Positions 1,674 through 57,718 of a DNA stretch of 64,000 bases are shown in pieces. Made by a program: the position numbers and the translations under genes. Under the pieces are notes generated by a model. It searched no databases and was not told where the DNA came from. It worked only from the letters and a program-made list of their open reading frames with translations. The DNA comes from a virus (lineage: Duplodnaviria > Caudoviricetes): IMG/VR virus record IMGVR_UViG_2974513674_000001, positions 48,226-112,225 of that record. One strand, written 5' to 3'. The first letter of the stretch is position 1; every line of letters begins with the position of its first letter.

Positions 1674-1704
1674 CCGCGTGCTCCCAGTTCTATTCGCGCA
1701 TAAT
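1674..1704 (+). promoter_or_regulatory. CC-N8-CC-N13-CATAAT promoter (first of a family of more than 20 copies, see findings)
   Basis: CC 1674-75, CC 1684-85, CATAAT 1699-1704, CC/GG-free to 1745. Confidence 0.7.
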
Positions 1705-1755
1705 TCAACTCGTATTCAGACGCAATTAAACGCTAATTCAAACAGGTCGAAATCA

Positions 1756-3840
1756 ATGGATCGCACCCAACGCATCGTCATCATGCGAGAGGCAATCACG
1801 AAGATTGCCCAAATCTTGACGGACAGCAAAGTCCTCGTCACCCAAGCGGGTGTGAAGGCATTCGTCAAGTACGACGACCGCACGCACAAGGCAACTCGGG
1901 TGAACATCCCGATGATCCCGGACGACGCCAGCGACGAGCTGATCGAAGGGATTCAGGGCTTCCTTGACAGCGAAATCTCCAAAGTCCTGTACGCAGACGG
2001 CAAGTCGAACCTGCGCGCAGCTCATGAGAACATGAGCGGCCTGTACAACCCGCTTGAGTCCTTCTTCTGCGAGAAGGAAATGGTCAAGAACTTCGCGGGT
2101 TCGCGCCACAACCTGGCGAACATGCACCAGACCTTCGTGGACAAGTTCATCGAGCCGAAGCTGAAAGAAGCCCTCGCGAACGGTGCCGAAGAGCAAGAGC
2201 TGTTCCAAGTCCTCGCGATCCCAGCACTGCGTGCCTGGGGCGGCCAGAAGTTCTTCATCGACTACATGAGCGACAAGTGGTCGCTGATCGCCGGCATTCA
2301 GAAGCAGCTCGACCCAGTCGCCAAGAAGATGCAGGGTATGACCAAAGCGTCTGACTGCTACGACATGGCGAAAGAGATTCGCAACGTCGTGATGGGCGAA
2401 CCCCCTGAAGGCGACGGCGATAACCCGTTCGGTGACGAAGACCCGAGCAAGTCCGGTAAGGGCGGCGGAGGTGGAGGCGCAGGTGGTCGCGGTGGCAAGT
2501 CAGGCGCGAAGGGCAAGCAGCCTCCGAAAGCAAACAAGGGTGCCGGCGCAGGCGAACTCGGTGACGAAGAAGACGAAGACCCAAGCGCTGCCGGCGGTGG
2601 TGGCAAGCCCGAACTCGAAGACGACGAGAAAGAAGAGGGTGAGGACGGCGAAGAGGATGATGATGACCTCGACGACGATGAAGAGGACGAAGGCGATGAC
2701 GAAGGTGATAAGCCTGAGCGTCGTGAAGAAGAGTCCGGTGAGGGTGGTGACGGCATCAGCTCTCAGCAAGAGAACCAGGGTCCGAAAGAGGACACTGAGT
2801 CCGCTCAGTCTGAATACGGTGGCGCCAACTACCTGAAAGACTTCGACTGGAACAAGACCCAGGACATCGGCACTGAGTTTGGCCAGTACGTCAGCGACCT
2901 GTGCTCCACTGAAATGGCTGAAGAGGACTACACCGTCTTCACCCGTGAGTGGGACCAACTCGAAGCTCCAAAAATCCCATCGTCGTACAGCCCAAAATGG
3001 CTCGAAGACATGGAGAGCGCAATCGCGGGCATGGTCGGCCCAGTGTCTCGCAACCTTGAGCGTGCGTTTGCAGCCCGGAACAAGTCGCTCACCCAGCAGG
3101 GTCTGCGCAAAGGCAAGATGTCGTCGAACAACCTGTATCGACTCGTCGCCGGCGACGACCATATCTACAAGAGCAAGATCGAGCACAAGACCCGGGAGAT
3201 TGCCGTGTCGCTGGTGATCGACTGTTCGGGCTCGATGGGTGGCTCCAAGATCCACACTGCCATGTGCAGCGCCTGGGTACTTGCTGACGTCCTGGGTCGC
3301 CTGGGTGTCGAGTGCGAAATCATGGGCTTCACCACCGGTGACCTGTACGCACAGCGGTCGAAAGACCTCTACAAAGAAATGTGCGACGAGCACGCCGCCG
3401 GCAGGGAATGGGACCGCTGCGAGCCACTGCGACTGCCGATGTTCAAGACCTTCAAAGAGAAGTTCTCCATCGAAGTCAAGAAGCGGATGGCCAGCTATGC
3501 GCACGTCCAGTCTTCGATGGCATCGAACATCGACGGCGAGTCGATCCAGTATGCCTACGAGTCTCTGAACCGACACGCCAATCGGGGTAAGAAGAAAGGC
3601 AAGATGATGATCGTCTTCAGCGATGGTCAGCCAGCAGGTGGTGTATCCAGTGCCAAGCTGAACGCCCACTTGAAAGCAGTGGTCAAGCGGATCGAGAAAG
3701 ACGGTACGAATATCGTCGGCGTCGGCATCATGTCCAACGCTGTGCAGCACTTCTACCGTAAGAACGTGAAACTGGACAACGTCGCCGACTTGCCGGGCAT
3801 CGTCCTGAATCAGTTGCGGGACGCGCTGCTTGCCAGCTAA
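1756..3840 (+). CDS. CobT-like von Willebrand A domain protein
   Basis: MIDAS DCSGSM and FSDGQP motifs, long acidic/Gly linker; start moved to ATG 1756, downstream of the promoter. Confidence 0.85.
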   Translation: MDRTQRIVIMREAITKIAQILTDSKVLVTQAGVKAFVKYDDRTHKATRVNIPMIPDDASDELIEGIQGFLDSEISKVLYADGKSNLRAAHENMSGLYNPLESFFCEKEMVKNFAGSRHNLANMHQTFVDKFIEPKLKEALANGAEEQELFQVLAIPALRAWGGQKFFIDYMSDKWSLIAGIQKQLDPVAKKMQGMTKASDCYDMAKEIRNVVMGEPPEGDGDNPFGDEDPSKSGKGGGGGGAGGRGGKSGAKGKQPPKANKGAGAGELGDEEDEDPSAAGGGGKPELEDDEKEEGEDGEEDDDDLDDDEEDEGDDEGDKPERREEESGEGGDGISSQQENQGPKEDTESAQSEYGGANYLKDFDWNKTQDIGTEFGQYVSDLCSTEMAEEDYTVFTREWDQLEAPKIPSSYSPKWLEDMESAIAGMVGPVSRNLERAFAARNKSLTQQGLRKGKMSSNNLYRLVAGDDHIYKSKIEHKTREIAVSLVIDCSGSMGGSKIHTAMCSAWVLADVLGRLGVECEIMGFTTGDLYAQRSKDLYKEMCDEHAAGREWDRCEPLRLPMFKTFKEKFSIEVKKRMASYAHVQSSMASNIDGESIQYAYESLNRHANRGKKKGKMMIVFSDGQPAGGVSSAKLNAHLKAVVKRIEKDGTNIVGVGIMSNAVQHFYRKNVKLDNVADLPGIVLNQLRDALLAS

Positions 3841-3930
3841 ACCCCATAGCTTCCCCAAACGTGCGCTCTTACAATGAGCGCACTCAAACGAAACAAGCAA
3901 TTTCAATTTTAAACAAACGAGGATTCACCA

Positions 3931-5157
3931 GTGAGCGATAAAATCAAGTGCGAAATCTGCGGCGAAGAAGTTCACAGCATCGCCAACCACCTGAAGACTG
4001 CGCACAACGAGGACTCGGCCAAGCCGATGGACCTCGAAACTTATCGCGCTACCTATCCGGGCGCTGAAATCTTGTCCGAGCTGGGCAAGAAGAAAATGGC
4101 CGAAATGAAAGCCAAGCGTGAAGCTGAAGAAGCCAAGACCGCTGCTGCGAACCCTGAAGCTGGCGCCAAGCCTGCTGCATCGACCAACCCGGACATCGCG
4201 AAGGTCTTCTTCCACGAAGTCTTCAAGTTCCCGAAGAGCCCCAAGTCGGCCTTCACCAAAGCCGGCACCGGCATCCCTTGCACTGCTGACGCCCGTGATA
4301 GCAGCGTCGATGGTCACATGATCCCGGCCTGGTCCGACAACTACATCCTGAACCCAGACCTGACGAAGACCGTCATGATGGCGTTCGAGATTCGCACCCC
4401 GATCTTCCTGTATGGTCACTCGGGTGTGGGCAAGTCGTCGATCTTCAAGCAAATGTGTGCCGGCCTGAACCGCCGTCTGTTCCGCTTCCAGCACACCGTT
4501 GACACCGAAGAGTCGCACATCGTTGGTCAGTGGGTCGTCAAGCCTCACATCAACCCGGATGGCTCTGCTGTATCGGTCACTGAGTTCGAGCTGGGTCCAT
4601 TGCCAATGGCCATGCTCAACGGCTGGACCTACCTGGCTGACGAAATCGACCGTTCGTCTCCGACTGTTCTGTCCGCGTATCAAGCGATTCTCGAAGGCGA
4701 GCCGCTGATCATCAAGAACGCCCCTGCTCACCTTCGTGTGATCAAGCCGCACCCGCTGTTCGCGTTCGCTGCAACTGGTAACACCAACGGCACCGGTGAC
4801 CAATCCGGTCTGTACCAAGCAACTCTGACCCAAGACGCCGCGACCATCGAGCGTTTCGGTGTTGTAGCGATGGTGGACTACCCACCAGAGAAGCAAGAAA
4901 TCGCCATGATCGCAGCAGCGACTGGTCTGTCCGAAGCTGACGCGAAGCGTATTCGCCAGTTCGCTGACGAGATTCGCACCAAGTCGTTCCCGAACATCGT
5001 GTCGCTCACCATCGGCCCGCGTGTTGCGATCAACATCGCTCGCATCGGCATGATGAAGGCTGACTTCGTAGAAGGCGCGCTGTATGCCTACTGCAACCGT
5101 CTGCCTGAAGCTGAGAAAGAAGCAGCACTGGGTGTCGCGAAGCGTATCCTGGCGTAA
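3931..5157 (+). CDS. CobS/MoxR-like AAA+ ATPase with N-terminal C2H2 zinc finger
   Basis: Walker A GHSGVGKS, Walker B LADEID, sensor ATGN, Arg finger ERF; CEIC...H...H; adjacent to vWA gene. Confidence 0.88.
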   Translation: MSDKIKCEICGEEVHSIANHLKTAHNEDSAKPMDLETYRATYPGAEILSELGKKKMAEMKAKREAEEAKTAAANPEAGAKPAASTNPDIAKVFFHEVFKFPKSPKSAFTKAGTGIPCTADARDSSVDGHMIPAWSDNYILNPDLTKTVMMAFEIRTPIFLYGHSGVGKSSIFKQMCAGLNRRLFRFQHTVDTEESHIVGQWVVKPHINPDGSAVSVTEFELGPLPMAMLNGWTYLADEIDRSSPTVLSAYQAILEGEPLIIKNAPAHLRVIKPHPLFAFAATGNTNGTGDQSGLYQATLTQDAATIERFGVVAMVDYPPEKQEIAMIAAATGLSEADAKRIRQFADEIRTKSFPNIVSLTIGPRVAINIARIGMMKADFVEGALYAYCNRLPEAEKEAALGVAKRILA

Positions 5158-5173
5158 CATCGGCAGTAACTGA

Positions 5174-5202
5174 GAAAGCAGGTCTTCGTGACCTGCTTTT
5201 TT
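5174..5202 (+). terminator. intrinsic terminator
   Basis: AAAGCAGGTC-ttcgt-GACCTGCTTT followed by T-run. Confidence 0.75.
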
Positions 5203-5226
5203 GTCTTCATCGTAGGAGTTCGGCGG

Positions 5227-5769: not shown

Positions 5770-5770
5770 A

Positions 5771-8700
5771 ATGAACAACCTCTTAGGGGCCAAGACCCAC
5801 TTTAGTCTCGGCGAATCCATCTACGACCCGGAAGCCCTCGTCAAAAAGGCAGAGCTTGCCGGGTACGATGGCATTGTCGTGACCGATGTCGAATCAATCG
5901 ACTCGATGCCAATCCTGGCGGGCAAGGCGAAGGGCCTGCAAGTAGGACTGGGCGTGCAAATCTCAGTCGTCCAAGACCTGACCTGGGTCGCAGCCAAACG
6001 GGGCGAGCCCAAGCGCGCGCCAAACCCGTTCTTCATGCCCACTCTGTTTGTTCGGAACGATGCCGGCTTCGCGGACTTGTGCGAGCTGTTGACCCTCGCC
6101 CAGAGCGAAGATCACTTCTGCACGAAGCCAAGCCGTATGCAGATCGACCTGAGCGAGCTGCTGGCGTTCGTGCAGCGGGGCAACCTAACGATGACGCTGG
6201 GAAGCGCTTATAGCGCGCTACAGCACAAGCAACGCGAAGCGCTGCTAGATGCGTGCTGCGATGTCTTGGACGTCTCACAGATGCTCTGTGAGCTGATCCC
6301 AGTTAGCAGCGCATTCTATGATCGACACAACTTCAACACGCTGAAGCTGATGCAGGAACGGGGCATCGAAGGCATCGTTACCAGGCCGACCCTCAATCAG
6401 AAAGACGAGGTCAGCTTCCGCAACACGATGAACTCGATCCTGTCGCACGACAAGGTCGACAGCACCTGGCGCCGCGAGCCGCCCGAAGACCTGCACATCA
6501 TCGAAGCAACCGAAGTGGTCACACACGTCGGCACCCTGATCGAACGCATGGTCAAAATGGGGTTCGATGATGACGCGGCAACGGACATGATCAATCAGGC
6601 TTGGTGCAAGAACCAGGCGTACTTCACTGACCACCCGTACAAGTGGTCGAAGATGACCCCGAGCCTGCCCGTCATGTCTGCCAACCCAATGGCTGACATC
6701 GTCGCGATCTGCAAGCAAGGCTGGAAAGAGCGCCTGGGCAAAGAGGTGTTCGGGTACAAGCCTGACGCAAGCCTGCTGCCCAAGTACCAGGAGCGCCTGA
6801 AGTATGAGCTGTCGATTCTCCAGAAGATGGAGTTCGAGCCGTACTTCCAGCTCGTTCACTACATCGTCAACTGGTCGAAGAACGACGGCATCATGGTTGG
6901 CCCGGGTCGGGGTTCGGTAGGTGGTTCGCTCGTTGCGTACCTGATGGGGATCACCGACGTGGACCCGATCCGCTTCGACCTGATCTTCGAGCGCTTCATC
7001 AACCCGGAACGTATCGACTTGCCCGACGTCGACCTCGACTTCATGTCCAGTCGCCGTCAAGACATCGTCGACCACCTGGTGAGCAAGTTCGGCGACGAGC
7101 GTGTCGTCCAGATCGCCAACTACAACACCATCGCCGGTGCTGGTGCGATCCAAGCGGTGGGCAAGGCTCACGGCCTGCATGAGAGCCAGTACGAGTGCTC
7201 GAAGCTGGTTCCGAAAGAGTCGGGCGTGCCAATCCCTCTTGAGAAAGCGGTCGCGTTCGTGCCCGAACTTGAGAAGCTGGCTCTGAACCACCCTGAAGTC
7301 TGGGCAGCGTCCGTCGGCCTGCAAGGCACCTTCAAGAACTTCGCCAAGCACGCAGCCGGTGTCGTCGTAGCCGGTACTGACATCGTGGGTCGCGGCGTAG
7401 TGAACCGGCGCCAGGGTGTGGGTATCGTGAACTGGGACAAGCGGGTCGTCGAAGACTTCGGCTTGATCAAGCTCGACGTGCTGGGTCTGTCCAACTTGGA
7501 TATTCTCCGTCTCGCACGGGACTACATCCGCGAAGCGCACGCAATCGAGGTCGACTTCACCACGCTTCCGCTCGACGACAAGAAAGTCCTGGACAGCTTC
7601 GCAGCGGGCAAGACCTATGGCGTGTTCCAGTTCGAGTCTGGGGGTATGCGCAAGCTGCTCAAGGAACTCGGCAGCGGGGGCAATCTGACCTTTGAAGACT
7701 GTGTCGCCGCAACAGCACTGTTCCGACCCGGCCCAATCCAAGCTGGCCTGATGGACCTGTACGTGTCGATCAAGAAGGAATTCACCGAGCCGGAGTATCT
7801 GCACCCGAACATGAAAGCCGCACTGGAGCCCACGATGTCTGTGATGGTCTACCAGGAGCAGGTCATGCAAATCTCCCGTGACCTCGCCGGCTACACGTTC
7901 CCAGAGGCAGACGGCCTGCGGAAGATCATGGGTAAGAAAGACCCGGTCAAGATGGCCGAGCAGCGCGACAAGTTCGTCGATGGCTGTATCGCTACGTCTG
8001 GATTGGATCACGCAACCGCAACCTTCATCTTTGAGCAGATCGAGAAGTTCGCTGGCTACGGCTTCAACAAATCCCACTCCGTCGCGTACACCCTCATTTC
8101 CTACATGACCATGTGGGTGAAGGTCTACTACCCAGAGGCGTTCTACGCCGCGTGCTTGTCGATCTTGGACGAGCAGAAGCTCTCAGGGCTAGCCAAAGAC
8201 GCGCAAGCGAACGACATCTACATTGTCCCGCCTGACATCAACCACAGCTCAGGGCGGTACGAGGTGGGCTTTGATGCGGCACGGGGTCAGAAGATTCTGT
8301 ACGCACCGTTCCAGTCGATCAAAGGCATGAGCGACAAGTCGGCCGCTGCGATTGTGGCAGCACGTCAGAAGCTGGGTCGCGGCTTCAAGAATAAAGCGGA
8401 GCTGATCCTCGAAGTGGACCGGCGCGCTTGCAACAAGCGTCACCAGGAAATGCTGGACAAGATCGGGGCATTCGCCAAGATCGAACCTGGCCAACTGGAC
8501 GCCCGACACCCGGATCGGTTGCGTGACCAGAAGGAGCTGCTGCCGGGCATCGTCGTCAGCAACGTGAAGGCGGAGAGGGTGATCGAAATCACTGGCGATG
8601 TCAGCGCAGAGCTGATCCAGATCGTCGACGACTTCCAAGCACACAAAGGCTGCGACGGCTGTCCGTTCATTGGTCGACCGCACCCTATGCCAGTCCTGGG

Positions 8701-9163: not shown

Positions 9164-9235
9164 CCCATAGAAACCCCAGCGTCAGCGCGCTTTAATAGCG
9201 TCTGACGCATTCACACAAACAGCGAGACTCAACCG

Positions 9236-10516: not shown

Positions 10517-10519
10517 CGA

Positions 10520-15128: not shown

Positions 15129-15203
15129 TGCCACTGGGGATAACATTTCAACCCCAGTCTTTAGCGCTCATAATCAACGCTCAATCAAACAGCGAGTAGC
15201 CCA

Positions 15204-16292: not shown

Positions 16293-18226
16293 AAATCCTG
16301 AAGGCGATCATCGACAACTTCGCCGCCATTGGGCACATCGAGGTCGAGCTGAATGACAAGGGCTTGGTGCTGATCCAGGGCGACAACAAGGACGACACTT
16401 CCCAGGACTCGAACGGTTCGGGCAAGTCGACCCTGCCGGATGCGCTGTGCTGGGCCTTCTACGGCGAGACTGCCAAAGGTCAGTCCGGTGACAAGCTGGT
16501 CAACCGCACCGCCAAGAAAGACTGCGCCGTTGAAGTGCATGTGGTCGACGAAGACACCGACGACGTGTTCCGCATCAGTCGTCACCGCAAGCACAAGACC
16601 TACAAGAACATGCTGCGCCTGGAAGTGCTTCAGGGCTCGAACTGGAAAGACCTCACCGGCGGCACCGACAAGCTGACCCAGGCGCTGGTCGAGAAGGTGA
16701 TCGGCTGCAACTACGAAGTCTTCAAGTCCGCGATCTACGCTGGCCAAGAAGCCATGCCCGATCTGCCAGGCATGACCGACAAGCAACTGAAGGTGCTGAT
16801 CGAAGAGAGCGCCGGCATTGCACAGCTTCAAGCAGCCTCTGACATCGCGAACCGCCACGTCAAAGACCGCAAGCTGATCGTTCAGGATCACCAGGGCAAG
16901 ATCGACAAGCTCCAGTCCAACATCGAATTGCTGGACAGCAACATCGTGACCCTCAAAAGCCGTTCGGAAGCCTGGGAAATCACTCAAGAAGCCAATATTG
17001 GCATCGCTGAAGACAACGTGACCACGCTCGAAGCCTCGTTCGACGACGCCCTGGGCGACCGCATCACGAAGAAGAAGACCCAGCTCGCTGACAAGTCCTC
17101 TGAAATTCGCACGCAGATCGCCGGCAGTGATGCTGAGCGTCTGCAAGAGCGTGTGCTGGCTGATGCGAAGGCGAAGGCTGACGCAGGCGAGTCGAACGCT
17201 GCCCACGCTTATGACACGGCCAAGAACCGCGTCAGCCACGCAGAGCACGCCTTGTCGCACGCCGGTGAGTCCGGTCACTGTGACACCTGCGGTCACGAAC
17301 TCGACGCCAGCAACGTCGAGACGGCTAAAGCCAACGCTCAAGCAACGCTCGACAGCGAGAAATCAGCGCTTGCAGCAGCGAAGAAGGCACTGTCTGTAGC
17401 GCACGACAGCGCTGATACAGCGACGAAAGCGCTAGCAGAGCATCGCGACAACATGACAGACGTTAGCGCGCTCACAAGCGAGCTACAGACGATCAGCGAG
17501 AACAGCGCGAAGCTGGACGCTGCGCTGACCGCCTGGAATCGTCAGAAGACTGGTCTTGAAGCGGCGAAGGCCAACGTCCAGGCTGAGCGCGACAAGAAGA
17601 ACCCCTACGGTCAACAGATCACCGACGCCGAAGCGCAGATCGACACGATCAACGCCAAGATCGAGGAAGTCGAAGAGCGCCGGGTCGAAGCAGCCAAAGA
17701 GCTGTTCATCGCCGAAGAAGCGGCGCGAGTGTACAACCAGGCCGGCGTGCGAGCGCACATCCTGGACACCGTGACGCCGCACCTGAACGCCCGCACGTCG
17801 CACTACCTGTCCACGCTGACTGACGGCAACGTCTCCGCTATCTGGTCGACCGTCAGCAAGACTGCCAAAGGCGAGCTGCGCGAGAAGTTCGTGATCGACG
17901 TGGAGTCCAAGACGGGCGGCGAGTCCTTCAAAGACCTGTCGGGCGGTGAGAAGCGCAAGGTTCGCCTGGCGTGTGCAATGGCTCTGCAAGACCTGGTTGC
18001 AAGCCGGGCCAACAAGCCGATCAAGCTGTTCATCGCGGACGAAATCGACACCGCACTCGACGCAGCCGGCCTGGAACGCCTGATGGCAATCCTCGATGCG
18101 AAGTCGCGAGACAAGGGCACCGTTCTGGTAGTCTCCCACTCCGACCTCCGCGACTTCATCCGTAACAGCGTGACGGTCGTCAAGCAGGGCGGCAAAGCTA
18201 CCCTGGAAGCCAACACTATCCTGTGA
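16289..18226 (+). CDS. sbcC: SbcC/Rad50-like ATPase
   Basis: Walker A NGSGKS, coiled coil with CDTC zinc hook, LSGGE signature, IADE Walker B; start at ATG overlapping the sbcD stop. Confidence 0.92.
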   Translation: MKILKAIIDNFAAIGHIEVELNDKGLVLIQGDNKDDTSQDSNGSGKSTLPDALCWAFYGETAKGQSGDKLVNRTAKKDCAVEVHVVDEDTDDVFRISRHRKHKTYKNMLRLEVLQGSNWKDLTGGTDKLTQALVEKVIGCNYEVFKSAIYAGQEAMPDLPGMTDKQLKVLIEESAGIAQLQAASDIANRHVKDRKLIVQDHQGKIDKLQSNIELLDSNIVTLKSRSEAWEITQEANIGIAEDNVTTLEASFDDALGDRITKKKTQLADKSSEIRTQIAGSDAERLQERVLADAKAKADAGESNAAHAYDTAKNRVSHAEHALSHAGESGHCDTCGHELDASNVETAKANAQATLDSEKSALAAAKKALSVAHDSADTATKALAEHRDNMTDVSALTSELQTISENSAKLDAALTAWNRQKTGLEAAKANVQAERDKKNPYGQQITDAEAQIDTINAKIEEVEERRVEAAKELFIAEEAARVYNQAGVRAHILDTVTPHLNARTSHYLSTLTDGNVSAIWSTVSKTAKGELREKFVIDVESKTGGESFKDLSGGEKRKVRLACAMALQDLVASRANKPIKLFIADEIDTALDAAGLERLMAILDAKSRDKGTVLVVSHSDLRDFIRNSVTVVKQGGKATLEANTIL

Positions 18227-23244: not shown

Positions 23245-23366
23245 TCGACGTGCGACCTGACATCTGAACAGGTAGCAGCTCAGGGACGAGCTGATCCCCA
23301 CGTAACCCCAACAATCGAGCGCTATCATTAGCGCTCGAATCGTTTAAACAGCATGAGACTCAAAGA

Positions 23367-26864: not shown

Positions 26865-26981
26865 AATCGCGGCGAAAAATTAGACGATTTTTGCCACGTA
26901 CCTTACACAAAGCCCCATCAAGTCCCTCGTTCTGTGTGACATAGTGATCATGACTATTGAACGCAGAACGAGGGATTTTTC

Positions 26982-27287
26982 ATGCGAGCGAATATGAGAG
27001 CGATACAGACGTCCTCCGCGTTAGTTGTGCTCATTGCTGCAAGTGTTCTAGTTGTCGTCGCTGCACACGCTACAGAGCGTCACAGCGACACGCACAGCGA
27101 GCACAGACATAGCAGACACGAAACGCGACACATACACGCAGAACGCGAGCGCTACGAGCACCCGCCGCTGCACAGCGAAGGCACTCGGGAAGATGCCGAC
27201 GCCTATCCCTCGTTCGATGATCCGGCTGACTACCGTGAAACCAATCGCTACAACCCATACTCCGATGAAACCTACGACGAAGAGTGA
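26982..27287 (+). CDS. signal-peptide-bearing His-rich hypothetical protein
   Basis: hydrophobic N-terminus; contains a CC/GG-free patch at 27017-27161. Confidence 0.5.
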   Translation: MRANMRAIQTSSALVVLIAASVLVVVAAHATERHSDTHSEHRHSRHETRHIHAERERYEHPPLHSEGTREDADAYPSFDDPADYRETNRYNPYSDETYDEE

Positions 27288-30415: not shown

Positions 30416-30498
30416 TAGCCGTCTAAGCCCAGAGTAAAACTGACAGACTGTCTCTTAACAGAGCAGTCTGTTTTTTATTGTCAAGAGAAAAGTGGGAA

Positions 30499-33262: not shown

Positions 33263-33334
33263 CGAAATGCAGAGCCCTCCAGAAACCACTGAAAAGCTGT
33301 GATAATTGCAGCTCATTCAGAAGCGAGGTAGCCA

Positions 33335-34345: not shown

Positions 34346-34419
34346 ACGCCACGCTATGCCTGAGAAATCAGCGCATAGTGTGCATCTATCGAAACAGCAC
34401 ATAGCAAGAGAACAATCAC

Positions 34420-35510: not shown

Positions 35511-35615
35511 CAGAGCCCAGGATTTCGCCACGCACTGCCTATTCCTGCTCTGTATAGTTCACTTACTGAAACGCGACACACATTAAACAACTCAGCTTAA
35601 ACAGGTACTTACAGC

Positions 35616-36906: not shown

Positions 36907-37423
36907 ACTGGTTCCATCCAACCAGTGGGGCACGAACCTGCGCAGCGTCCTGGCTCCGAAAGTCTGGGACTCGCTCCGCAAAGCCTGCTACGAACGTGCC
37001 GGCCACCGCTGCGAGATTTGCAATGGCGTCGGTCGCACCCACCCGGTCGAGTGCCATGAAACCTGGGAGTACACCGATGGCCCCGTGTGGATTCAGAAGC
37101 TCACCGGGTTGATCGCGCTGTGCCCAAGCTGCCACAAGGTGAAGCACATTGGCTTCGCGCTGACGCAGGGTGATCGCGCTTTCATGGCTGCGCTGAACCA
37201 CCTGGCCAAAGTCAACGGCTGGTCGCCCACGCGGACGTATGACTACGTGAACAACCAGTTCGAGATTCACCGGGTTCGCAGTCAGATGCACTGGGTCATG
37301 GACCTCGACTGGCTCGACAACATGCAAAGCTACATCGACGAGACAGCAACCGCAGCACGGCAAGCTCGCTCTGAGCGCGCTGCTGCGACGATAGCGAATA
37401 TGACTCGCAAGCGTGACGCTTAG
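36887..37423 (+). CDS. HNH-type nuclease
   Basis: CEIC...ECHE...LCPSCHKVKH; GGAGG RBS. Confidence 0.75.
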   Translation: MPKLTCELVPSNQWGTNLRSVLAPKVWDSLRKACYERAGHRCEICNGVGRTHPVECHETWEYTDGPVWIQKLTGLIALCPSCHKVKHIGFALTQGDRAFMAALNHLAKVNGWSPTRTYDYVNNQFEIHRVRSQMHWVMDLDWLDNMQSYIDETATAARQARSERAAATIANMTRKRDA

Positions 37424-37529
37424 AGCGAATCGCTCTTAAACGAGCGCACAGAGCGTCCAACAGAGCTGAGTGGGCGCCAAGTAGTGCCACTCAGCAGTCT
37501 GTAGAATTGCAGACTTGAAGGAGAGTTTT

Positions 37530-39190: not shown

Positions 39191-39263
39191 AGCTGGCACC
39201 CACACAAGCCCAACGTGCGCTCTATAAACTGAGCGCACTCACAGCGAAACGATGAGGCAACCC

Positions 39264-40491: not shown

Positions 40492-41111
40492 TCTGGCCGT
40501 TTACCGAATTGAAGAAGCTGCGTGACGCACTGGCTATGGCCAACGAGACCAACAAGCAAGCGGTCGAGAACTTCACGTCGTTGCACCAGACCAGCGTCAA
40601 GCAGGGCAAGCTGATCGACAAGTTGAGCCAAGAACTCGAAAGAAAGCGTATGCGCCTGGTCGCTTGTGGTGTGGGTGCAATGGCGAACACCCGGGAGTCG
40701 GCAGCACAGCAGCGTGTGAAGCCGGATAGCCCGTACTACTGCGCCAGCGTCGGTGACGTCTACAGCGCGGTCGACCGGGAAATGAAGCATCGCGAAGACC
40801 TTGAGTCAGCGCTGGATCGCATCGCTGACATGGTGAAAGGTGACGACGGGCAAGCCTGGAAAGAGGCTGAGAAGTTCCTCAGCCTACATCGCAGCACCAA
40901 GATTTGCGTCAAGTGCGGCAGCGACATGATCCCGATGCACAGCGAAGACAAGAAGCTGTGCAGCAACGGCGCCTGTGGTCATGAGGTGCTATGGACCTTA
41001 GCTGAAGGCCAGCACTATCAGTACAAGCGGAACGTCGAGCCCTTTGTCGAAGACCGGTCGAATCAGCAAGCAGAGCTTGAGCCTCCACGCGCCACCCTTG
41101 AGCGCTTATAA
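40488..41111 (+). CDS. hypothetical protein with zinc ribbon
   Basis: CVKC...C...C; ATGA coupling. Confidence 0.68.
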   Translation: MIWPFTELKKLRDALAMANETNKQAVENFTSLHQTSVKQGKLIDKLSQELERKRMRLVACGVGAMANTRESAAQQRVKPDSPYYCASVGDVYSAVDREMKHREDLESALDRIADMVKGDDGQAWKEAEKFLSLHRSTKICVKCGSDMIPMHSEDKKLCSNGACGHEVLWTLAEGQHYQYKRNVEPFVEDRSNQQAELEPPRATLERL

Positions 41112-41139
41112 TCAAATCTGTTAGCAAGAGGAAATCGTT

Positions 41140-42659: not shown

Positions 42660-42769
42660 GTCTCCTGGGCTTCACTCGAAGCCCAGCCTCCCCCTCTCTC
42701 ACAGCTCGTATAATCGACGTCACAGACAAAGCGCAGTCGTTGCGCAGTCACAGTGAGGGAACGTCGCAT

Positions 42770-44895: not shown

Positions 44896-45288
44896 ATGGC
44901 CACATTGACCGGCAAGCTGATCGCAAAAGCCCAACGTGCAATCGTGGCCTACTACCACCTCTGCACCGATCATGACGACTGGGGCACCCTGGATGAGCAC
45001 TGGCTTCAGGTTCTCGCTGAGAGCCCGGCACCAGGCTACTTGAACAGGTACTTCGTCCGAGTCAAGAACACCAGACGCTTCGAGCACCAGAAGAACGCTC
45101 TGAGCGACATCGACCGCAGCAGAGGCATCATGTGCGTCACCTTTCTGCATGGGTCGATCACACCTGACACCGGGTGGTACATCAAGCCGAGTGGTCGCCA
45201 TGCAAACCCACTCGAAAACTATCAACATAGAGACGCGCAAGAAGAGATTGCGACCAACAGACCAGAGAATTTCGGGAGCTGGGCATGA
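44896..45288 (+). CDS. hypothetical protein, C-terminal tag RPENFGSWA
   Basis: GAGG RBS. Confidence 0.68.
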   Translation: MATLTGKLIAKAQRAIVAYYHLCTDHDDWGTLDEHWLQVLAESPAPGYLNRYFVRVKNTRRFEHQKNALSDIDRSRGIMCVTFLHGSITPDTGWYIKPSGRHANPLENYQHRDAQEEIATNRPENFGSWA

Positions 45289-47105: not shown

Positions 47106-47200
47106 CCAAAGTGCGCTGCTGGTCGCCGACTGGCAGCCACGCACTGCCTTGATCTGTCTCGTAAAATGCTTGCACACGTCACAAACGAGAGTGCAAGAAA

Positions 47201-48174: not shown

Positions 48175-48265
48175 AACGCTTGCAAACGCCAACACTCCCC
48201 AGTTGCTCTCTCGTAAAATGATCACAACAGCAGCAAACAAGCTGCGATAACGAGAGAGCAACATC

Positions 48266-49496: not shown

Positions 49497-49969
49497 ATAA
49501 AATAATCGCTTGCAAGAAGGCCGCTGAGAACCAGTGGCCTTTCTTTTCATGAACATGCTGCCTTGGCCCCCTGAACATAGCCGAACTTTGAACATACGGT
49601 TGTGCAACCGTTTATGCGACAAAAGCCAACATCTACGGGGGTTAGACAGGCGTTTACCTGTGTTTGCATGTTACTGGGTTGTTCATAGCCCACTGAGACG
49701 TTTCTACAGTCACTCGCACACGAAAACAGATCGTCGGGAAGACGTCTGAGACGTTCTGAGAGCGACGAACCAGATCGAAACAAATCAGCGTAGCGCTCAG
49801 ACAAGAACGCAGCTTAAAAGCGCTCTGAGAGCGTCGTGATTTTTGAGTAGGCAGCCGGATTGTGAGCCGATGCTCTCCCTCATAAAACAAGAGATAATTA
49901 GATAGCTAGAAGTATAAATAAGGGAAGAGTTGGATGAGGCTCTTCAGGTACAACCAACGAGGGATTCAC

Positions 49970-50856: not shown

Positions 50857-51026
50857 TCACTAAGGCTTGTCCAAACGTGCAGCGGGAGCCAACACACGCC
50901 ATACGCTCTCGCTGCATAATGAACGCGCAACACACAAGAACAGAGCTGCGCAAGAAGCGCCCTCAATAACCATTAGGAACCCGCTATACGTCTTGAACCT
51001 AACCCAATCGCAACTGAGGTAACACC

Positions 51027-52468: not shown

Positions 52469-52743
52469 CGCTCTGGGAGAGCAGGCAGTGGAAGCCACCC
52501 GGAAGCCGAAAGACCTACAAGATCAGCCTGCTCATTCGCTGTAGAATCGCACTCACAGCAAGAGACAAACGAAGTACAGCACAGACGCAGCGGGAAGCGC
52601 TCTGAGAGCTTCACAGAGCGACGAACGAGCTACAGAGCAGCAGAGACGCGCAGAACATCAAACAAGCGTCACAGCAGCTACAGAATTCAGCCAGGTCAGG
52701 GCGCAAATACTGACCCTCTCGTCAGCCCGCTTGAGGGCTGTTG

Positions 52744-52784: not shown

Positions 52785-52810
52785 ATCAGAAAGGCTGGCG
52801 CCCCAAGGGA

Positions 52811-53160: not shown

Positions 53161-53259
53161 TCAGTGTGGCTTGCAAGCGTTTACCTGCACATGCCATTTG
53201 CAAGCGTTTATTATGTATGCAGATCGAAGCACACGACTTCGGCAATACGAGAGCAAGAC

Positions 53260-53819: not shown

Positions 53820-53964
53820 GCAGCAAGAAGCCACCTTTGCCCGGAGGGTGGCTTCGCCACAGAAGCGCCGCGGCGGATTCCTGGCTGCCGACACATACCT
53901 ATAGCAAGCGTTTACTATGATCTCACTGAAGCGAACGACTTCAGACCACTGAGAGATAGTCACC

Positions 53965-54527: not shown

Positions 54528-54575
54528 GAGGGAACCCGGTGATCCGGGTGCTCCCACACAGAACCTCGCCGCGGC

Positions 54576-54652
54576 ACGGTCCATGTAAATCAGGCACACA
54601 GGCACGCATACGTGAGAACGACGGTCCACCAACTTCCGGCCACACGCATGAG
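54576..54652 (+). repeat. ACGGTCCA...CAGGCACAC repeat, copies 3-4
   Basis: homologous to 52388-52468. Confidence 0.72.
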
Positions 54653-54803
54653 AGGCCCTACAAGGCTCTCTAAGGGCTTCCAAGGGCTTTAGGAGCGTCG
54701 TTGTAGCCGTGGGAGTAGCAAACGCCGTGTAGAGCCTTCTAGAGAGCTGTAGAATGCACTTACAGACAGCGCATCGACTGTCTGACTATCGAGAGCACAT
54801 GAA

Positions 54804-55106
54804 ATGTCCCAGACTCCCAAACAAGAAGCCCTTTTCAAACGCGCACTATCGTTCACCGAGAGTGAGCAGTTTGACGGCTACCCTCATCTGTCTGATACCG
54901 ACAACACGCTGATCATCGAAGCCGCTCAAGAAGCGAACAGCCCGGATACTGCTCAGTTTCTCGCCTTTGCTTTGAGCGAAGCAACATCGACCAAAGAAGA
55001 AGCGGCGAACGCCAAGCGCTACTTCGATGCCTATATTGACAATGTCTGGGTCGCTAACGTTTCTGAGAGTGGCAACCCGCTGTTTGATGTTGAAGACGAA
55101 GCGTAA
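54804..55106 (+). CDS. acidic hypothetical protein
   Basis: promoter CC(54725)-N8-CC(54735)-N13-TAGAAT(54750); terminator at 55112-55137. Confidence 0.65.
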   Translation: MSQTPKQEALFKRALSFTESEQFDGYPHLSDTDNTLIIEAAQEANSPDTAQFLAFALSEATSTKEEAANAKRYFDAYIDNVWVANVSESGNPLFDVEDEA

Positions 55107-55149
55107 CCAGAACCCGGGCTAACTACCCGGGCTTCTTGAGAGCTATAGA

Positions 55150-55328
55150 GCCGCGGTGCTCTGGAAATTCCCTATATGGCCCGATATAGGGACAGGCGGC
55201 CCTTGGTAGAGCGGAAATGAGTCACCGCGGCGCTAATACGGGAGCGGGCCGGCGAGCCACGGCAAAAGCCGCGGCGCTGTTCCCAGGCTGCGGGTTCGGT
55301 GGTGTGGTTTCTGAGGTGGGCCGCGGCG
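55150..55328. repeat. second CCRYGG cluster with core element
   Basis: 5 CCRYGG hexamers; core at 55164-55197. Confidence 0.72.
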
Positions 55329-55427
55329 AGTGCCGGGCTGGGGCTCTGGGAGCTGGTTTTCAGCTCTGGGGCTTTTCTGCTTTCTTGTGATCAGTATAAA
55401 CGCTTGCACAGGCTTTGCAAGCGTTTT

Positions 55428-55619
55428 TTAGACTTTCCCGAAAAACTTTTTGAAAGCCAGTTTCCGAGCTTCCCACTTTTCTGCCTTGAGTCGATCCTGC
55501 TCCACAAGCTCGTCCCAGCGATAGTACGTTTTGACTCCCAGAACGTCCCGTTTGAATTCGCTCCAAGCCCAGCCCAAGAAGACGAAAACACATACTACTG
55601 CGAAAATCATGCTCATCAT
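55428..55619 (-). CDS. small membrane-anchored protein
   Basis: AAGGA RBS; hydrophobic N-terminus; sigma70 promoter TTGCAA-17-GATAAT on the minus strand (about 55653-55681). Confidence 0.6.
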   Translation of the reverse strand: MMSMIFAVVCVFVFLGWAWSEFKRDVLGVKTYYRWDELVEQDRLKAEKWEARKLAFKKFFGKV

Positions 55620-55738
55620 GTCCTTGCTTCCTTATTGTGTGTGCGTGCGATGATTATCGAATATTCGCTTGCTCATTGCAAGCATTATTTCGATATAAGC
55701 ATTATTCTTTTCCGATCTAAGAAAAATCGAAAATTCGC

Positions 55739-55766
55739 TTGCACACGTCTCGAATTCGCGTAGAAT
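55739..55766 (+). promoter_or_regulatory. canonical sigma70 promoter with A-rich UP element
   Basis: TTGCAC-16-TAGAAT, preceded by GAAAAATCGAAAATT. Confidence 0.75.
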
Positions 55767-55842
55767 TCAAATTGTCGAAACGCACAGCGCTAGACGAACT
55801 TAAACGAAGCGCAAAACGCGCTCATTAAACGAGAGAACTAAA

Positions 55843-56397
55843 ATGACTACTATCAACGCTAAAGCAGAATCTTTCAAAAACGTTTTTGCTACTGCTGCTG
55901 TTAACTACGCTCAAACTAAAGAGCAAGCGCAGCAAAACGCAGAACAAGCGCAGTCTGAAGAAGAGCGCGAAACTTTCGCTGCTGCTGCTAAGAAAGCTGA
56001 CACACACGCTCGCTACACTGAAGCGCTGTCGAACATGAGCGAAAAAGCGCTTGCAAGTCTGAGCAAGTACAAAGTTAACGCTGAAGCGCTTGCAGAACAA
56101 TCGCGTGAACTGAAAAAACGCTCTATCGCGATTCTTGAAGCGCTCGCAACAAAACAGCGTGTGAATGATCGCGCACTTGACGCAGTATTGCAGTACATCG
56201 TTAAAAACGATGCTGCTGCAATGAATCTTGAGCAAGTGCGTCATCAAATGCAGCATGATACTTTGACTCAAGCGCAATACTTCAAAACTTGCGCAATCTT
56301 CTTCAACTTCGCGCAATACTCGAAGTCTGAAAAGACTATCAGCTTCAATAAAGACGCAATCGTTCTTAAAGAGCTGATCGCAATCTACAGCGCTTAA
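55843..56397 (+). CDS. 184-aa helical protein with no Gly, Pro or Trp (candidate immediate-early regulator)
   Basis: own sigma70 promoter, GAGAG RBS and terminator; whole unit has no CC/GG. Confidence 0.85.
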   Translation: MTTINAKAESFKNVFATAAVNYAQTKEQAQQNAEQAQSEEERETFAAAAKKADTHARYTEALSNMSEKALASLSKYKVNAEALAEQSRELKKRSIAILEALATKQRVNDRALDAVLQYIVKNDAAAMNLEQVRHQMQHDTLTQAQYFKTCAIFFNFAQYSKSEKTISFNKDAIVLKELIAIYSA

Positions 56398-56406
56398 TCA
56401 ACACAC

Positions 56407-56440
56407 AAGCGCTACAGCACACGCTGTAGCGCTTTTCTCT
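56407..56440 (+). terminator. intrinsic terminator built without CC/GG
   Basis: AAGCGCTACAGC-acac-GCTGTAGCGCTT followed by TTCTCT. Confidence 0.8.
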
Positions 56441-56464
56441 CAGTCTAGCAGTCGAGCTATCAAT

Positions 56465-56788
56465 ATGAGTCATTCGCACGCTGTACGCGCTCACAGACAC
56501 GCTCTCACAGTAGATACACGCATGTACGCTACATGCGCACGCAATGCGCTGTATGAGCTGCGCTATGTGAAGCGCTCACAGCGCTACTATCTGCATGTAG
56601 CTAACAGCGTGAGCGTGATTGTAGACGCTGCTACAGCAAGCGCTGTATACGCTGCTATGATGCGTCATGTAGTGCGCACTACAGCTAAAGACAAGCGCGC
56701 TACTAGTGCGCGCACTAGTGTATATACAATGCGCAGTGATATACGTGCGCTGTTACTTGCTGAAAATATGAGCAAGTATGCGCACTAA
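56465..56788 (+). CDS. possible basic protein (also no Gly, Pro or Trp)
   Basis: 107-aa ORF with weak RBS; may be non-coding. Confidence 0.35.
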   Translation: MSHSHAVRAHRHALTVDTRMYATCARNALYELRYVKRSQRYYLHVANSVSVIVDAATASAVYAAMMRHVVRTTAKDKRATSARTSVYTMRSDIRALLLAENMSKYAH

Positions 56789-56798
56789 GTCACATTGA

Positions 56799-56827
56799 AC
56801 TAGTGCAACTTAGTTAGTTGCACTAGT
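56799..56827. repeat. perfect 12-bp inverted repeat
   Basis: ACTAGTGCAACT-tagtt-AGTTGCACTAGT; related palindrome ACTAGTGCGCGCACTAGT at 56702-56719. Confidence 0.8.
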
Positions 56828-56902
56828 CTAGTTGTCAAAGTCTTAGAAGGGATTTTTAAAGTCGCGCCCTATTGGCGCCAATGTGCCGGACCCCACAGAA
56901 GT

Positions 56903-56995
56903 CCCCTTACACAACCAGGGGCCGGAGTTAAACCACTAACCCCTTACACAACCACCCCGGAGACACCAAAAATGACAGAACCCCTTACACAACCA
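56903..56995 (+). repeat. three perfect 15-bp direct repeats CCCCTTACACAACCA
   Basis: copies at 56903, 56940 and 56981. Confidence 0.85.
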
Positions 56996-57436
56996 GCCCC
57001 TGAGCAAGAAGTCCCCAGGCTCCAAGTCCCCGAGCCACGTAACTGGCTTGACCGCTTATGGAACAGGTGCGGTTTCCTCACTGCCGAGCAACGCCTGGCA
57101 GTACACCGAGACGCAGACGCCAGGTTACACGCTGCCCGGCTCCGCCGGCTCGAAGAGAATGGCGGGCTCGACCCCCATGACTCTGACGACTACATGCAAA
57201 TCCAGATCAACCGTCACTACGCCCAGGAGGAAGCCAAGCGTCGTAGCCGCACGATCAGAGACCTCTCACGCCTTATCCTGATCGCCCAGCTACCGACCCA
57301 CGATAAGCACCAGTTGCATCACCCCGACGACGTGAAGCTCGCCGTTGAGCAAGCCACGCGAATCTACGACATGACCAAGAACGCTCGCATTGAGCCGTTA
57401 CCTGGCGCACGTCAAGTCCCTAACGACCCGGAGTGA
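56972..57436 (+). CDS. hypothetical protein
   Basis: GGAG RBS. Confidence 0.6.
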   Translation: MTEPLTQPAPEQEVPRLQVPEPRNWLDRLWNRCGFLTAEQRLAVHRDADARLHAARLRRLEENGGLDPHDSDDYMQIQINRHYAQEEAKRRSRTIRDLSRLILIAQLPTHDKHQLHHPDDVKLAVEQATRIYDMTKNARIEPLPGARQVPNDPE

Positions 57437-57440
57437 CCTC

Positions 57441-57596
57441 ATGAAAGTCCCACTGTGGTTTGAAATGCTCTGCACCGAGCGGTACAAGAAGCGCCAGAAG
57501 AAGGTGCTCGACGAGACGGCTGAGCTGATTGCCAATCGGAAGGGTGAGCTGCCCCAGGCCAAGCACATCAGCCGGGTGAAGAAGCGGAAGCGGTGA
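57441..57596 (+). CDS. small basic protein
   Basis: GGAG RBS; terminator at 57614-57642. Confidence 0.5.
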   Translation: MKVPLWFEMLCTERYKKRQKKVLDETAELIANRKGELPQAKHISRVKKRKR

Positions 57597-57718
57597 AGTC
57601 CATGAAGCACCACAAGCCCAGGGCAACCACCTGGGCTTTTTCATGGGTGCCGACACATGCCTTTTGCAAGCGTTTACACTTACAACATCAAAAAGCAGTC
57701 AAGACAGAGCGAGAGACG

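Follow-up and report, generated by a model that had tools for sequence, protein, structure and literature searches.

Phased CC pairs upstream of a -10 hexamer define a predicted promoter family in the replication region of a Pseudomonas syringae Nickievirus

The window, a 64-kb stretch of DNA that is the right-hand part of the 112-kb genome of a Nickievirus, a siphophage that infects P. syringae, carries a motif of phased CC pairs that is genuine and occurs well beyond chance. The element is a direct repeat, SCCW-N6-SCCW, followed after 13 (sometimes 14) nt by a sigma70-type -10 hexamer (YAtAAT). The family is predicted to comprise about 25-30 promoters and is restricted to the region of replication, nucleotide-metabolism and small genes (genome ~41-106 kb). 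On balance, the sites are probably middle-class (or delayed-early) promoters, at which host sigma70 RNA polymerase would act together with an activator on the phased repeats.

A pattern scan with CC-N8-CC-N13-[TCG]ANNNT gives 33 matches on the plus strand and 16 on the minus strand, where second-order Markov simulations predict about 17.7. With TANNNT as the hexamer there are 15 plus-strand and 0 minus-strand matches, with 2.0 expected. Intergenic DNA makes up 11.7% of the genome and holds 19 of the 33 plus-strand matches (binomial p = 3e-10) and 0 of the 16 minus-strand ones, bearing out the intergenic bias expected in an earlier note on this DNA. A PWM built from the sites finds 33 matches on the plus strand and 0 on the minus strand at a threshold of at least 12 bits, and the sites lie mostly 28-77 nt 5' of a start codon. 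A test independent of the PWM and the hexamer was anchored on CC/GG-free runs of at least 42 nt. There are 56 such runs, 49 beginning with CC and 7 with GG; NAnnnT follows exactly 13 nt on in 25 of the 49, and 16 of these 25 have a further CC exactly 10 nt upstream, the expectation being fewer than 2. The earlier claim that nearly every intergenic -10 belongs to the family was overstated: a site is present in 23 of 41 gaps of at least 40 nt upstream of plus-strand genes (genome 41-106.5 kb), and the gap and PWM scans found none in the structural module.

A logo of 104 non-identical sites from eight genomes or contigs has C at frequencies of 0.89 and 0.82 at positions -25/-24 (distal pair) and 0.99 and 0.95 at -15/-14 (proximal pair), with S before each CC pair and A or T after it. 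In the hexamer, A2 reaches 0.98 and T6 1.00, and a weak preference for C, then A or T, appears 6 nt past it. The sites lack a TTGACA-like -35 box, as had been noted earlier, and the logo has no canonical TGn extended -10. In a phylogenetic footprint of orthologous sites, the four C columns are 87-96% identical, compared with 60-80% for their neighbours, and their conservation equals that of the -10, which supports purifying selection on both CCs. Part of this conservation may be structural, since at 1699, 15169 and 37502 a conserved hairpin upstream includes the proximal CC in its 3' arm. Three relatives that are 75-88% identical carry the same strand-specific family, and metagenomic relatives do likewise; the plus-to-minus ratio is 20:3 in hairong, 24:1 in Nican01, 25:1 in phiK7B1 and 9:0 in a metagenomic relative of 48% GC.

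The sites below are on the plus strand, are named by the window position of the hexamer, and are given with their PWM score in bits. The predicted promoter at 1674..1704 (CATAAT at 1699; 25.0) lies upstream of a CobT-like gene, and its CCs are inside an upstream hairpin that is conserved and has changed compensatorily in Nican01 and phiK7B1. Two N9 variants, at 3845..3875 (TACAAT at 3870; 17.3), kept in three relatives, and at 9166..9196 (TTTAAT at 9191; 15.0), have the putative -10 in a hairpin loop, that of an 8-bp hairpin with z = -5.0 at the former and z = -5.1 at the latter. The hexamer also occupies a hairpin loop at 23298..23328 (TATCAT at 23323; 17.3; z = -6.0), conserved in hairong, at 33276..33306 (GATAAT at 33301; 17.9; z = -5.0), with compensatory changes in relatives, and at 39200..39230 (TAAACT at 39225; 15.3; z = -4.7). 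The predicted promoter at 15144..15174 (CATAAT at 15169; 22.1) has the proximal CC only and is conserved. At 26915..26945 (CATAGT at 26940; 19.5) the proximal-CC region and the Shine-Dalgarno sequence are the two arms of a long inverted repeat, with a compensatory change in phiK7B1. At 48189..48219 (TAAAAT at 48214; 25.1) the spacer and the Shine-Dalgarno form a 12-bp inverted repeat with a compensatory T>C / A>G change in Nican01.

Further predicted promoters are at 34349..34379 (CATAGT at 34374; 19.4), with a hairong orthologue at 80878; at 35528..35558 (TATAGT at 35553; 24.3), where Nican01 and phiK7B1 retain the CCs despite divergence of the spacer; and at 37477..37507 (TAGAAT at 37502; 19.6), where phiK7B1 has a compensatory T/A swap between the hairpin arms. 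The site at 41082..41112 (TATAAT at 41107; 22.2) overlaps the 3' end of the preceding CDS and is kept in three relatives, and that at 47137..47167 (TAAAAT at 47162; 25.4) has a CC/GG-free run of 72 nt. Two N14 variants are found at 42684..42714 (TATAAT at 42709; 16.4) and at 50890..50920 (CATAAT at 50915; 13.7), the CC pair of the latter being shifted together, and a single-CC site at 52517..52547 (TAGAAT at 52542; 15.7) is kept in three relatives. Four putative array promoters lie at 53184..53214 (TATTAT at 53209; 23.2), where TTGCAAGCGTT adjoins the -10, 53888..53918 (TACTAT at 53913; 21.3), 54725..54755 (TAGAAT at 54750; 21.7) and 57650..57680 (TACACT at 57675; 23.3). A possible internal promoter at 45198..45228 (CAACAT at 45223; 18.3) lies within a CDS and is kept in all three relatives, where coding constraint could account for its conservation.

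All 16 copies that the earlier note called exact are present in the sequence at the coordinates it gave, with one doubtful member at 30419..30449 (CAGACT at 30444; 16.3), whose hexamer is within the stem of an intrinsic terminator with a T-run next to it. Its near copies are retained among the predicted promoters above, apart from three. The site at 49893 is weak (9.0 bits), 11187 is rejected (PWM -4.1), and minus-strand 61230 has one CC but is better explained as an ordinary promoter by CTGACT-17-TATCAT.

The zone around the sites that is free of CC and GG is real and specific. Between the proximal CC and the Shine-Dalgarno, CC and GG are roughly six times rarer than expected (observed/expected 0.18 and 0.16), confirming the earlier description of the spacer and downstream stretch, and GC and CG are enriched (1.77 and 1.37). 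A CC/GG-free stretch of at least 50 nt is present at 13 of 24 sites, compared with 0.14 in shuffles, and the clearing reaches about 45 nt beyond the -10. Together with the CC pairs, this cleared stretch points to a factor that reads CC/GG steps. The CCs hold too little information to work alone and no -35 accompanies them; as proposed earlier, the natural inference is a factor acting in trans that recognises the phased CC pairs near -37/-36 and -27/-26. In such a promoter, sigma region 2 would read the ordinary -10 with its invariant A2 and T6, and transcription would start at these sites, with an activator standing in for the -35 contact. The activator would bind the two SCCW half-sites, centred near -37/-36 and -27/-26, one helical turn apart and thus on the same DNA face. 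Each half-site holds only about 4 bits, and negative design may complete the specificity: other CC/GG in either orientation appears to be purged from the spacer, -10, start site and leader down to the Shine-Dalgarno, so that the reader would bind in one register only and could not occupy the core promoter. The clearing runs further than register control obviously requires.

The most extreme clearing is an island of 1137 bp (55712..56849) without CC or GG on either strand, with 0 CC where 67 are expected and 0 GG where 54 are expected. Islands of 1083-1125 bp are found in three relatives, and islands of 876-1490 bp in five of seven metagenomic relatives. Avoidance of self-binding covers this 1.1-kb operon only loosely. 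The operon is predicted to be driven by an early promoter of canonical type (55739..55766, plus strand), TTGCAC-16-TAGAAT preceded by A-rich sequence, which is kept in seven of ten aligned relatives. This promoter belongs to a separate class, TTGCA(C/A)-16/17-TAnAAT, that is likewise predicted to drive a few genes nearby.

P0001 (55843..56397, plus strand) encodes 184 aa without Gly, Pro or Trp and is the leading candidate for the CC-repeat reader. Its predicted fold (pLDDT 95.9) combines a helical hairpin at the N terminus with a confidently modelled winged-helix DNA-binding domain at the C terminus, and residues 105-184 resemble the winged helices of TubR, ArsR, MarR and SarA (Z 7-8.8, rmsd 2.2-2.5 A). 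The reader is most likely a phage early protein, and the canonical -35/-10 promoter would transcribe this candidate. Alternatively, the target of P0001, a probable dimer, may be a palindromic motif of AAACGCTTGCAAGCGTTT type found in the same region. The island's second gene, P0075 (56465..56788, plus strand), encodes a basic protein of 107 aa, also without Gly, Pro or Trp, and is annotated in Nican01 and phiK7B1. P0001 has 74 homologues. One, in a distantly related contig (L014), is 34% identical and contains Gly and Pro; that contig lacks the island, and the promoters there, with GG/CC in the spacer, resemble canonical ones. No phage sigma factor was found, and no protein of CII, MotA, AsiA or OmpR type was detected with Pfam, PHROGs or NCBIfam.

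The absence of a recognizable activator family would suit another arrangement, in which host sigma70 RNA polymerase alone uses the -10s and the CCs have no dedicated reader, being by-products of the edge of a CC/GG-free leader selected for other reasons, or of the 3' arms of terminator or stabiliser hairpins. The -10 is a good sigma70 hexamer, the proximal CCs at 1699, 15169, 37502 and 42709 lie within conserved upstream hairpins, and the strongest copies adjoin the early operon, the first place at which host polymerase has to act. However, promoters with neither a -35 nor an extended -10 are normally very weak unaided, the sites have neither, and the phage has canonical promoters where it needs them. 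By-products would also not be expected to keep a fixed distance of 13-14 nt to the hexamer, a distal CC exactly 10 nt further up in 16 of 25 run-anchored sites, or conservation matching that of the -10, and the upstream hairpin is missing at most sites. We consider polymerase acting alone unlikely. More doubtful is the suggestion, made in the earlier note, that CC/GG is chemically marked in the phage DNA. A factor or polymerase would then read marked CCs at -37 and -27, and only the unmarked CC/GG-free windows and early operon could be opened by unaided host polymerase. The depletion is indeed CC/GG-specific and strand-symmetric, spans the promoter cores and the entire early operon, and is conserved across the genus. 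Gene content lends this no support: neither a C5 or N4/N6 DNA methyltransferase nor TGT/DpdA turned up when the complete genome was searched in all six frames, and Pfam scans found no modification enzyme among 95 predicted proteins. At 240.8 bits, the score of the ThyA homologue exceeds the equivalog cut-off (108 bits) for a true thymidylate synthase as opposed to a hydroxymethylase; with DHFR alongside, this argues for ordinary dTMP synthesis. Since about 60% of the genes lack a functional assignment, the missing enzyme is absence of evidence. Putative late promoters have CC/GG directly after the -10, and a protein reader accounts for the same data without a mark.

The hairpins raise a further alternative, the most improbable of those weighed here, in which TAnAAT forms the conserved loop of hairpins that serve read-through transcripts as sites of processing, stabilisation or protein binding, and the lack of CC/GG is a feature of an RNA leader rather than of a promoter. 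The hexamer is in the loop of a strong hairpin at 9 of 25 sites (z of -4.7 or lower), some stems have changed compensatorily in relatives, at genome 43770 and at window 33301 and 37502, and long inverted repeats join spacer and Shine-Dalgarno at 26940 and 48214. No such hairpin is present at the other 16 sites, however, and the upstream CCs hold a fixed DNA distance with or without one. The invariant hexamer positions are A2 and T6 of the sigma70 -10, and the clearing begins 5' of any plausible start site and purges both CC and GG. The hairpins make better sense as an additional layer, as 3'-end stabilisers or as masks of the Shine-Dalgarno in read-through RNA.

By analogy, the architecture of these putative activator-dependent promoters is closer to that of lambda CII or PhoB than to that of T4 MotA, the precedent offered in the earlier note. 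Ho, Wulff and Rosenberg in 1983 and Jain et al. in 2005 are said to have placed the CII repeat on both sides of the -35. The target of CII is a TTGC-N6-TTGC repeat (PMC2629481). Like the lambda promoters PRE, PI and PaQ, the sites have two half-sites of 4 bp, directly repeated with a 10-bp period, that straddle a poor or absent -35, and CII is a phage activator that works with host sigma70 polymerase. They differ in the half-site (SCCW here, TTGC for CII), in having a good -10 where that of CII promoters is poor, and in number and role, about 25-30 lytic replication-gene promoters versus three lysogeny promoters; no CII homologue was detected here. We know of no CC/GG-type clearing at CII promoters. 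The pho boxes are direct repeats that replace the -35 on one DNA face, and their winged-helix readers contact sigma region 4. Direct repeats likewise replace the -35 here, and P0001 has a predicted winged helix, but pho boxes are sequence-rich 7-bp repeats with an 11-bp period, and P0001 has neither a receiver domain nor detectable sequence similarity to the OmpR family.

T4 middle promoters are a phage middle class, as proposed here, with a sigma70 -10 and a phage-specific upstream element in place of the -35. In T4 this element is read by a phage protein made early; the MotA box, 9 bp long and centred at -30, is a single element that needs AsiA, and MotA does not read the cytosine modification of T4 DNA. 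As a precedent it is architecturally poor, the elements here being phased dinucleotides and no homologue of MotA or AsiA being detected. Pseudomonas phage 14-1 has a non-sigma70-like promoter motif with a CTGGG core that is inactive without infection (PMC10914365). This is also a Pseudomonas phage dependent on host polymerase, with a second short GC-type motif that apparently needs a phage factor; unlike here, that motif has a different sequence, is some 5 bp away from the start site and has no phased pair, and dinucleotide clearing is unreported (PMC10914365).

The strongest members of the family (53209, 53913, 54750 and 57675) flank the early operon as an array and may themselves be early. 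If they truly are, the reader of the CC pairs must be a host or virion protein.

The CC family, a set of candidate promoters of the form CC-N8-CC-N13-(-10) named here by the window position of the -10 hexamer, has over 104 non-identical sites the consensus S-C-C-W, six variable bases, S-C-C-W, 12 variable bases and Y-A-t-A-A-T. The hexamer is a σ70-like -10 of the TATAAT type (A2 0.98, T6 1.00), and the SCCW tetrads form a direct repeat with a 10-bp period at -26 to -23 and -16 to -13 from the hexamer start. C is almost never found directly 3' of either CC. The spacing from CC to hexamer is 13 nt, occasionally 14, and the N14 sites shift the whole CC pair together. With the hexamer set at -12 to -7, the CCs lie at -27/-26 and -37/-36, on the same face of the helix. 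The claim of an earlier note that a -35 box is lacking holds, since positions -23 to -18 carry at most 0.55 bits and are unlike TTGACA; no TTGACA-like element is found 16-18 nt upstream in the logo of the 104 sites, nor an extended -10 with an in-register TGn (T at -3 0.37, G at -2 0.18). A shifted extended -10 was rejected, as the TG, though frequent, lies one position too near the hexamer and is out of register. The distal half-site often reads CCACNNA, resembling the -10 of the hrp box, which prompted a reading of the sites as HrpL promoters; this was ruled out, as GGAACC is missing 15-16 nt upstream and the information beyond -30 is near zero. A weak preference for C 6 nt past the hexamer, with A or T next to it, would fit, rather than prove, a start site at that position.

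All 16 sites that the earlier note had listed as exact copies are present. The scan that it proposed, comparing intergenic and coding matches to CC-N8-CC-N13-[TCG]ANNNT, returns 33 matches on the + strand and 16 on the - strand, with about 17.7 expected from second-order Markov simulations. The + strand matches are enriched intergenically (19 of 33 vs 11.7% of the genome, p = 3e-10), and none of the 16 on the - strand is intergenic. Restricting the hexamer to TANNNT leaves 15 matches on + and none on -, with 2.0 expected. With a weight matrix refined iteratively on the sites, there are 33 matches on + and none on - scoring at least 12 bits; the majority are 28-77 nt 5' of a start codon, and the convincing ones are all within genome 41-106 kb. 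A test independent of both matrix and hexamer, anchored on the 56 CC/GG-free runs of at least 42 nt, agrees with this picture: 49 runs start at a CC and only seven at a GG, NAnnnT follows exactly 13 nt on in 25 of the 49, and a second CC lies exactly 10 nt upstream, leaving an exact N8, in 16 of those 25. A match within a coding sequence, CC-N8-CC-N13-CAACAT at window 45198-45228, is kept in all three relatives and may be an internal promoter.

The window covers bases 48226-112225 of a 112,225-bp virus record whose nearest public relatives are Nickievirus siphophages infecting Pseudomonas syringae. Identity to it is about 88% across the RNR gene and 78-80% across the small-gene region for Nican01, phiK7B1 and ZY21, and 68-75% for hairong. 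Almost all genes are on the + strand, except for a short leftward cluster at the right end, and they run from structural and lysis genes (genome 3-40 kb) through replication and nucleotide metabolism to many small genes. The strand bias of the CC family recurs in the relatives, with + to - matches at 12 bits or more of 20:3 in hairong, 24:1 in Nican01 and 25:1 in phiK7B1, and metagenomic relatives also carry it, including one with only 48% GC (9:0). Where orthologous sites are aligned, the four C columns agree in 87-96% of comparisons, on a par with the -10 (85-96%) and above the flanks (60-80%). Published descriptions of the genus contain no promoter analysis, and a TSS survey of Pseudomonas phages holds no motif resembling the CC family.

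CC and GG are almost missing between the proximal CC and roughly the Shine-Dalgarno sequence. In 10-nt bins from -10 to +30 their frequencies are 0-0.004 and 0-0.008, against genome means of 0.057 and 0.052, and 13 of 24 sites are free of both for at least 50 nt, where shuffles of the same segments predict 0.14. The clearing is specific to these two dinucleotides, with observed/expected ratios in the cleared window of 0.18 for CC and 0.16 for GG, compared with 1.77 for GC and 1.37 for CG. It extends to the ribosome-binding sites: GG-free Shine-Dalgarno sequences occur in the leaders of most sites (e.g. window 47185-47200, 48250-48265, 53245-53258 and 57705-57718), many reading GAGAG or CGAGAG and not GGAG, and appear to be forced by the sweep. 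Avoidance of a type I-F CRISPR PAM (CC) or of restriction sites was considered as a possible cause and is disfavoured, as it leaves the fixed CC-to-hexamer geometry unexplained. CC/GG-free runs of 68-145 nt are also found in or beside coding regions, unlinked to a CC-type promoter (window 17386-17515, 27016-27161, 37359-37457 and 6200-6268).

Other promoters in the genome have different features. The small-gene region contains a few canonical ones, with a TTGCA(C/A) -35 and a 16-17-nt spacer, and that at window 55739-55766 is preceded by an A-rich region and kept in seven of 10 aligned relatives. Clearing of CC/GG is not seen at putative promoters of the structural module. The structural and lysis intergenic regions have GCTATACT- or GTATACT-like hexamers with neither a CC pair nor clearing (genome 21583, 29046, 34444, 37182 and 41961, all left of the window), and these may constitute a late promoter class. 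The 12-mer AAACGCTTGCAA and its inverse TTGCAAGCGTTT, in places forming a palindrome, occur in about a dozen copies in the small-gene region (window 48177, 49507, 53171-53210, 55401-55425, 55736, 57664 and 60038; genome 107-115). In the canonical promoters this AAACGCTTGCAAGCGTTT-type motif lies across the -35, and in four CC-type array promoters flanking the early operon (53209, 53913, 54750 and 57675) it sits directly beside the -10; it looks like an operator.

The promoter at 55739-55766 drives a two-gene operon within an island (window 55712-56849) that is devoid of CC and GG on both strands over 1137 bp, where 67 CC and 54 GG are expected. The island comprises this promoter, the genes for P0001 (184 aa) and P0075 (107 aa), and a terminator. 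Its length is 1083-1125 bp in the three sequenced relatives; of seven metagenomic relatives, five have it at 876-1490 bp, and in a sixth it is broken by a few CC/GG. Both proteins lack Gly, Pro and Trp because the operon is purged of CC and GG, and these residues are also absent from nearly all P0001 homologues in an alignment of 27 that reaches down to about 45% identity. In the most distant relative (IMGVR_UViG_3300020390_000002, 62% GC) the P0001 homologue is 34% identical and contains Gly and Pro, there is no CC/GG-free island, and the intergenic -35/-10 arrangements are ordinary, with CC/GG in the spacer. As one data point, this genome lies in the direction expected if the island and the promoter class belong together.

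P0001 is modelled (pLDDT 95.9) as a long N-terminal helical hairpin followed by a C-terminal winged helix, with a helix-turn-helix and a beta-hairpin wing. Residues 105-184 superpose on the DNA-binding domains of TubR, ArsR/SmtB, MarR and SarA with rmsd 2.2-2.9 A and Z values of 7-8.8, a range that the tool grades as middling; for TubR, AntR, MepR, SarA and MarR the alignments span 71-76 residues at Z 7.5-8.5. Foldseek against the PDB returns nothing at E <= 1e-3 for P0001, only weak winged-helix rows, and the ESM Atlas gave no usable lead for P0001 or P0075. The 74 homologues of P0001 appear to come from Nickievirus-like phages and share the invariant motifs SRELKKRS and MQHxTxTQAxYFK. Given the middling Z values, P0001 is, on its model, likely a winged-helix DNA binder. 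It is the candidate for the factor that would read the CC repeats, although its target could equally be the AAACGCTTGCAA/TTGCAAGCGTTT motif.

Family scans covered 95 proteins, with Pfam and PHROGs applied to 10 early-region proteins and Pfam to 75 further window and 10 left-arm proteins. The early-region set gave nothing informative, and no transcription factor, sigma factor or modification enzyme was found by Pfam among the other 85. Phage_CII had no match at E <= 1e-3 to 1e-2 in the 95, a set that leaves about 60 mostly structural proteins outside the scan, and MotA and AsiA homologues were not found by Pfam or PHROGs among the scanned proteins. A six-frame search of the whole genome with PF04542 and PF04545 found no phage sigma factor at E <= 1, with positive controls. 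PF00145, PF01555 and PF01702, covering C5 and N4/N6 DNA methyltransferases and TGT/DpdA, also had no match. The ThyA homologue passes the equivalog threshold for thymidylate synthase, which points away from a hydroxymethylase.

The invariant hexamer positions, the strand, the distance to genes and the lack of a phage polymerase or sigma factor argue for σ70-type promoters. The phased half-sites are conserved and located like known activator sites, so that the family is taken to be activator-dependent middle promoters. The repeats of λ CII flank the -35, and the CC family shares with CII-type promoters the direct-repeat tetrads, the 10-bp period and the flanking of the -35 position. The CII target repeat is TTGC-N6-TTGC (PMC2629481), whereas that of the CC family is SCCW. 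PhoB boxes take the place of the -35 at the same position as the CC half-sites. T4 MotA, which the earlier note had offered as a precedent, is the wrong one, as the logo has no consensus resembling the MotA box, (a/t)(a/t)(a/t)TGCTTtA centred at -30, and the scans found no MotA/AsiA homologue. An activator bound to two phased SCCW half-sites would contact the σ70 polymerase at middle promoters, and the cleared window may act as negative design, lending specificity to a 2-bp recognition unit. Of the earlier note, the observation is confirmed and the interpretation partly supported: a promoter family with a reader of phased CC pairs is upheld, the chemical mark that came with it lacks support, and the MotA parallel falls.

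Host polymerase alone might use these promoters, with the CCs as by-products; the σ70-like hexamer suits this account, which is nonetheless unlikely, as the CC promoters have no -35 and no extended -10 and would be expected to be weak in the absence of a further contact to the polymerase. A chemical mark on CC/GG would let a factor recognise so short a unit, and most genes are unannotated, but the empty methyltransferase and TGT/DpdA searches and the assignment of ThyA leave it without support from gene content, and it is judged quite improbable. The sites might also be RNA elements. The hexamer is in the loop of a strong hairpin at nine of 25 sites (z of -4.7 or lower), and hairpins of 8-12 bp with the -10 in the loop and arms covarying between phages are found at window 3855-3885, 9176-9215, 23308-23345, 33285-33320 and 39210-39245 and genome 43755-43800 and 47565-47600. 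At genome 43770, for instance, AAG/CTT in one phage corresponds to AGA/TCT in another, and window 37502 shows a T/A swap. Such hairpins may stabilise or terminate the 3' end of the upstream transcript, or may form a DNA cruciform. At 48214 (window 48201-48265) and 26940 (26925-26990) a long inverted repeat pairs the spacer or proximal-CC region with the Shine-Dalgarno sequence of the gene that follows, and Nican01 and phiK7B1 carry compensatory changes. There the ribosome site would be masked in read-through RNA and free in promoter-initiated RNA, which resembles the regulation of the T4 lysozyme gene. These structures do not displace the promoter reading, since 16 of 25 sites lack them, and an RNA element is the most improbable of these accounts.

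Within the activator reading, a separate canonical operon that is itself CC/GG-free suggests a two-tier cascade. It further suggests that the reader, the factor recognising phased CC pairs, engages CC/GG steps so widely that they have to be kept out of the gene encoding it; both this wide engagement and the choice of P0001 as the reader are our inference. Promoters with no -35 that need a phage activator are already known, and on present evidence the CC family is a new variation on them. No described system was located with the upstream element cut down to two phased dinucleotides, with a strict, conserved CC/GG sweep from promoter to ribosome-binding site, or with a whole early operon purged of CC and GG. 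That a new type of regulatory logic lies behind the clearing is a tentative suggestion, with the balance against it. In such CC/GG 'addressing' in Nickievirus, which we hold to be possible though somewhat doubtful, an early factor (a protein coat or a DNA mark) would engage CC/GG everywhere in host and phage DNA. Only CC/GG-free stretches, namely the immediate-early operon and the core and leader of about 30 promoters, would stay open to host RNA polymerase, and where a phased CC pair borders the cleared stretch, the same factor would serve as a -35 substitute.

If this addressing is true, a 2-bp code combined with negative design would both reprogramme transcription and shut off the host. A factor that reads CC/GG steps, if it exists, would represent very low-information recognition made specific by the removal of decoys, and may also reveal a new route of host shut-off. 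In practical terms, the family yields about 25-30 candidate regulated promoters for the engineering of Pseudomonas syringae phages, and gives a clean temporal-class annotation in a phage genus relevant to biocontrol.
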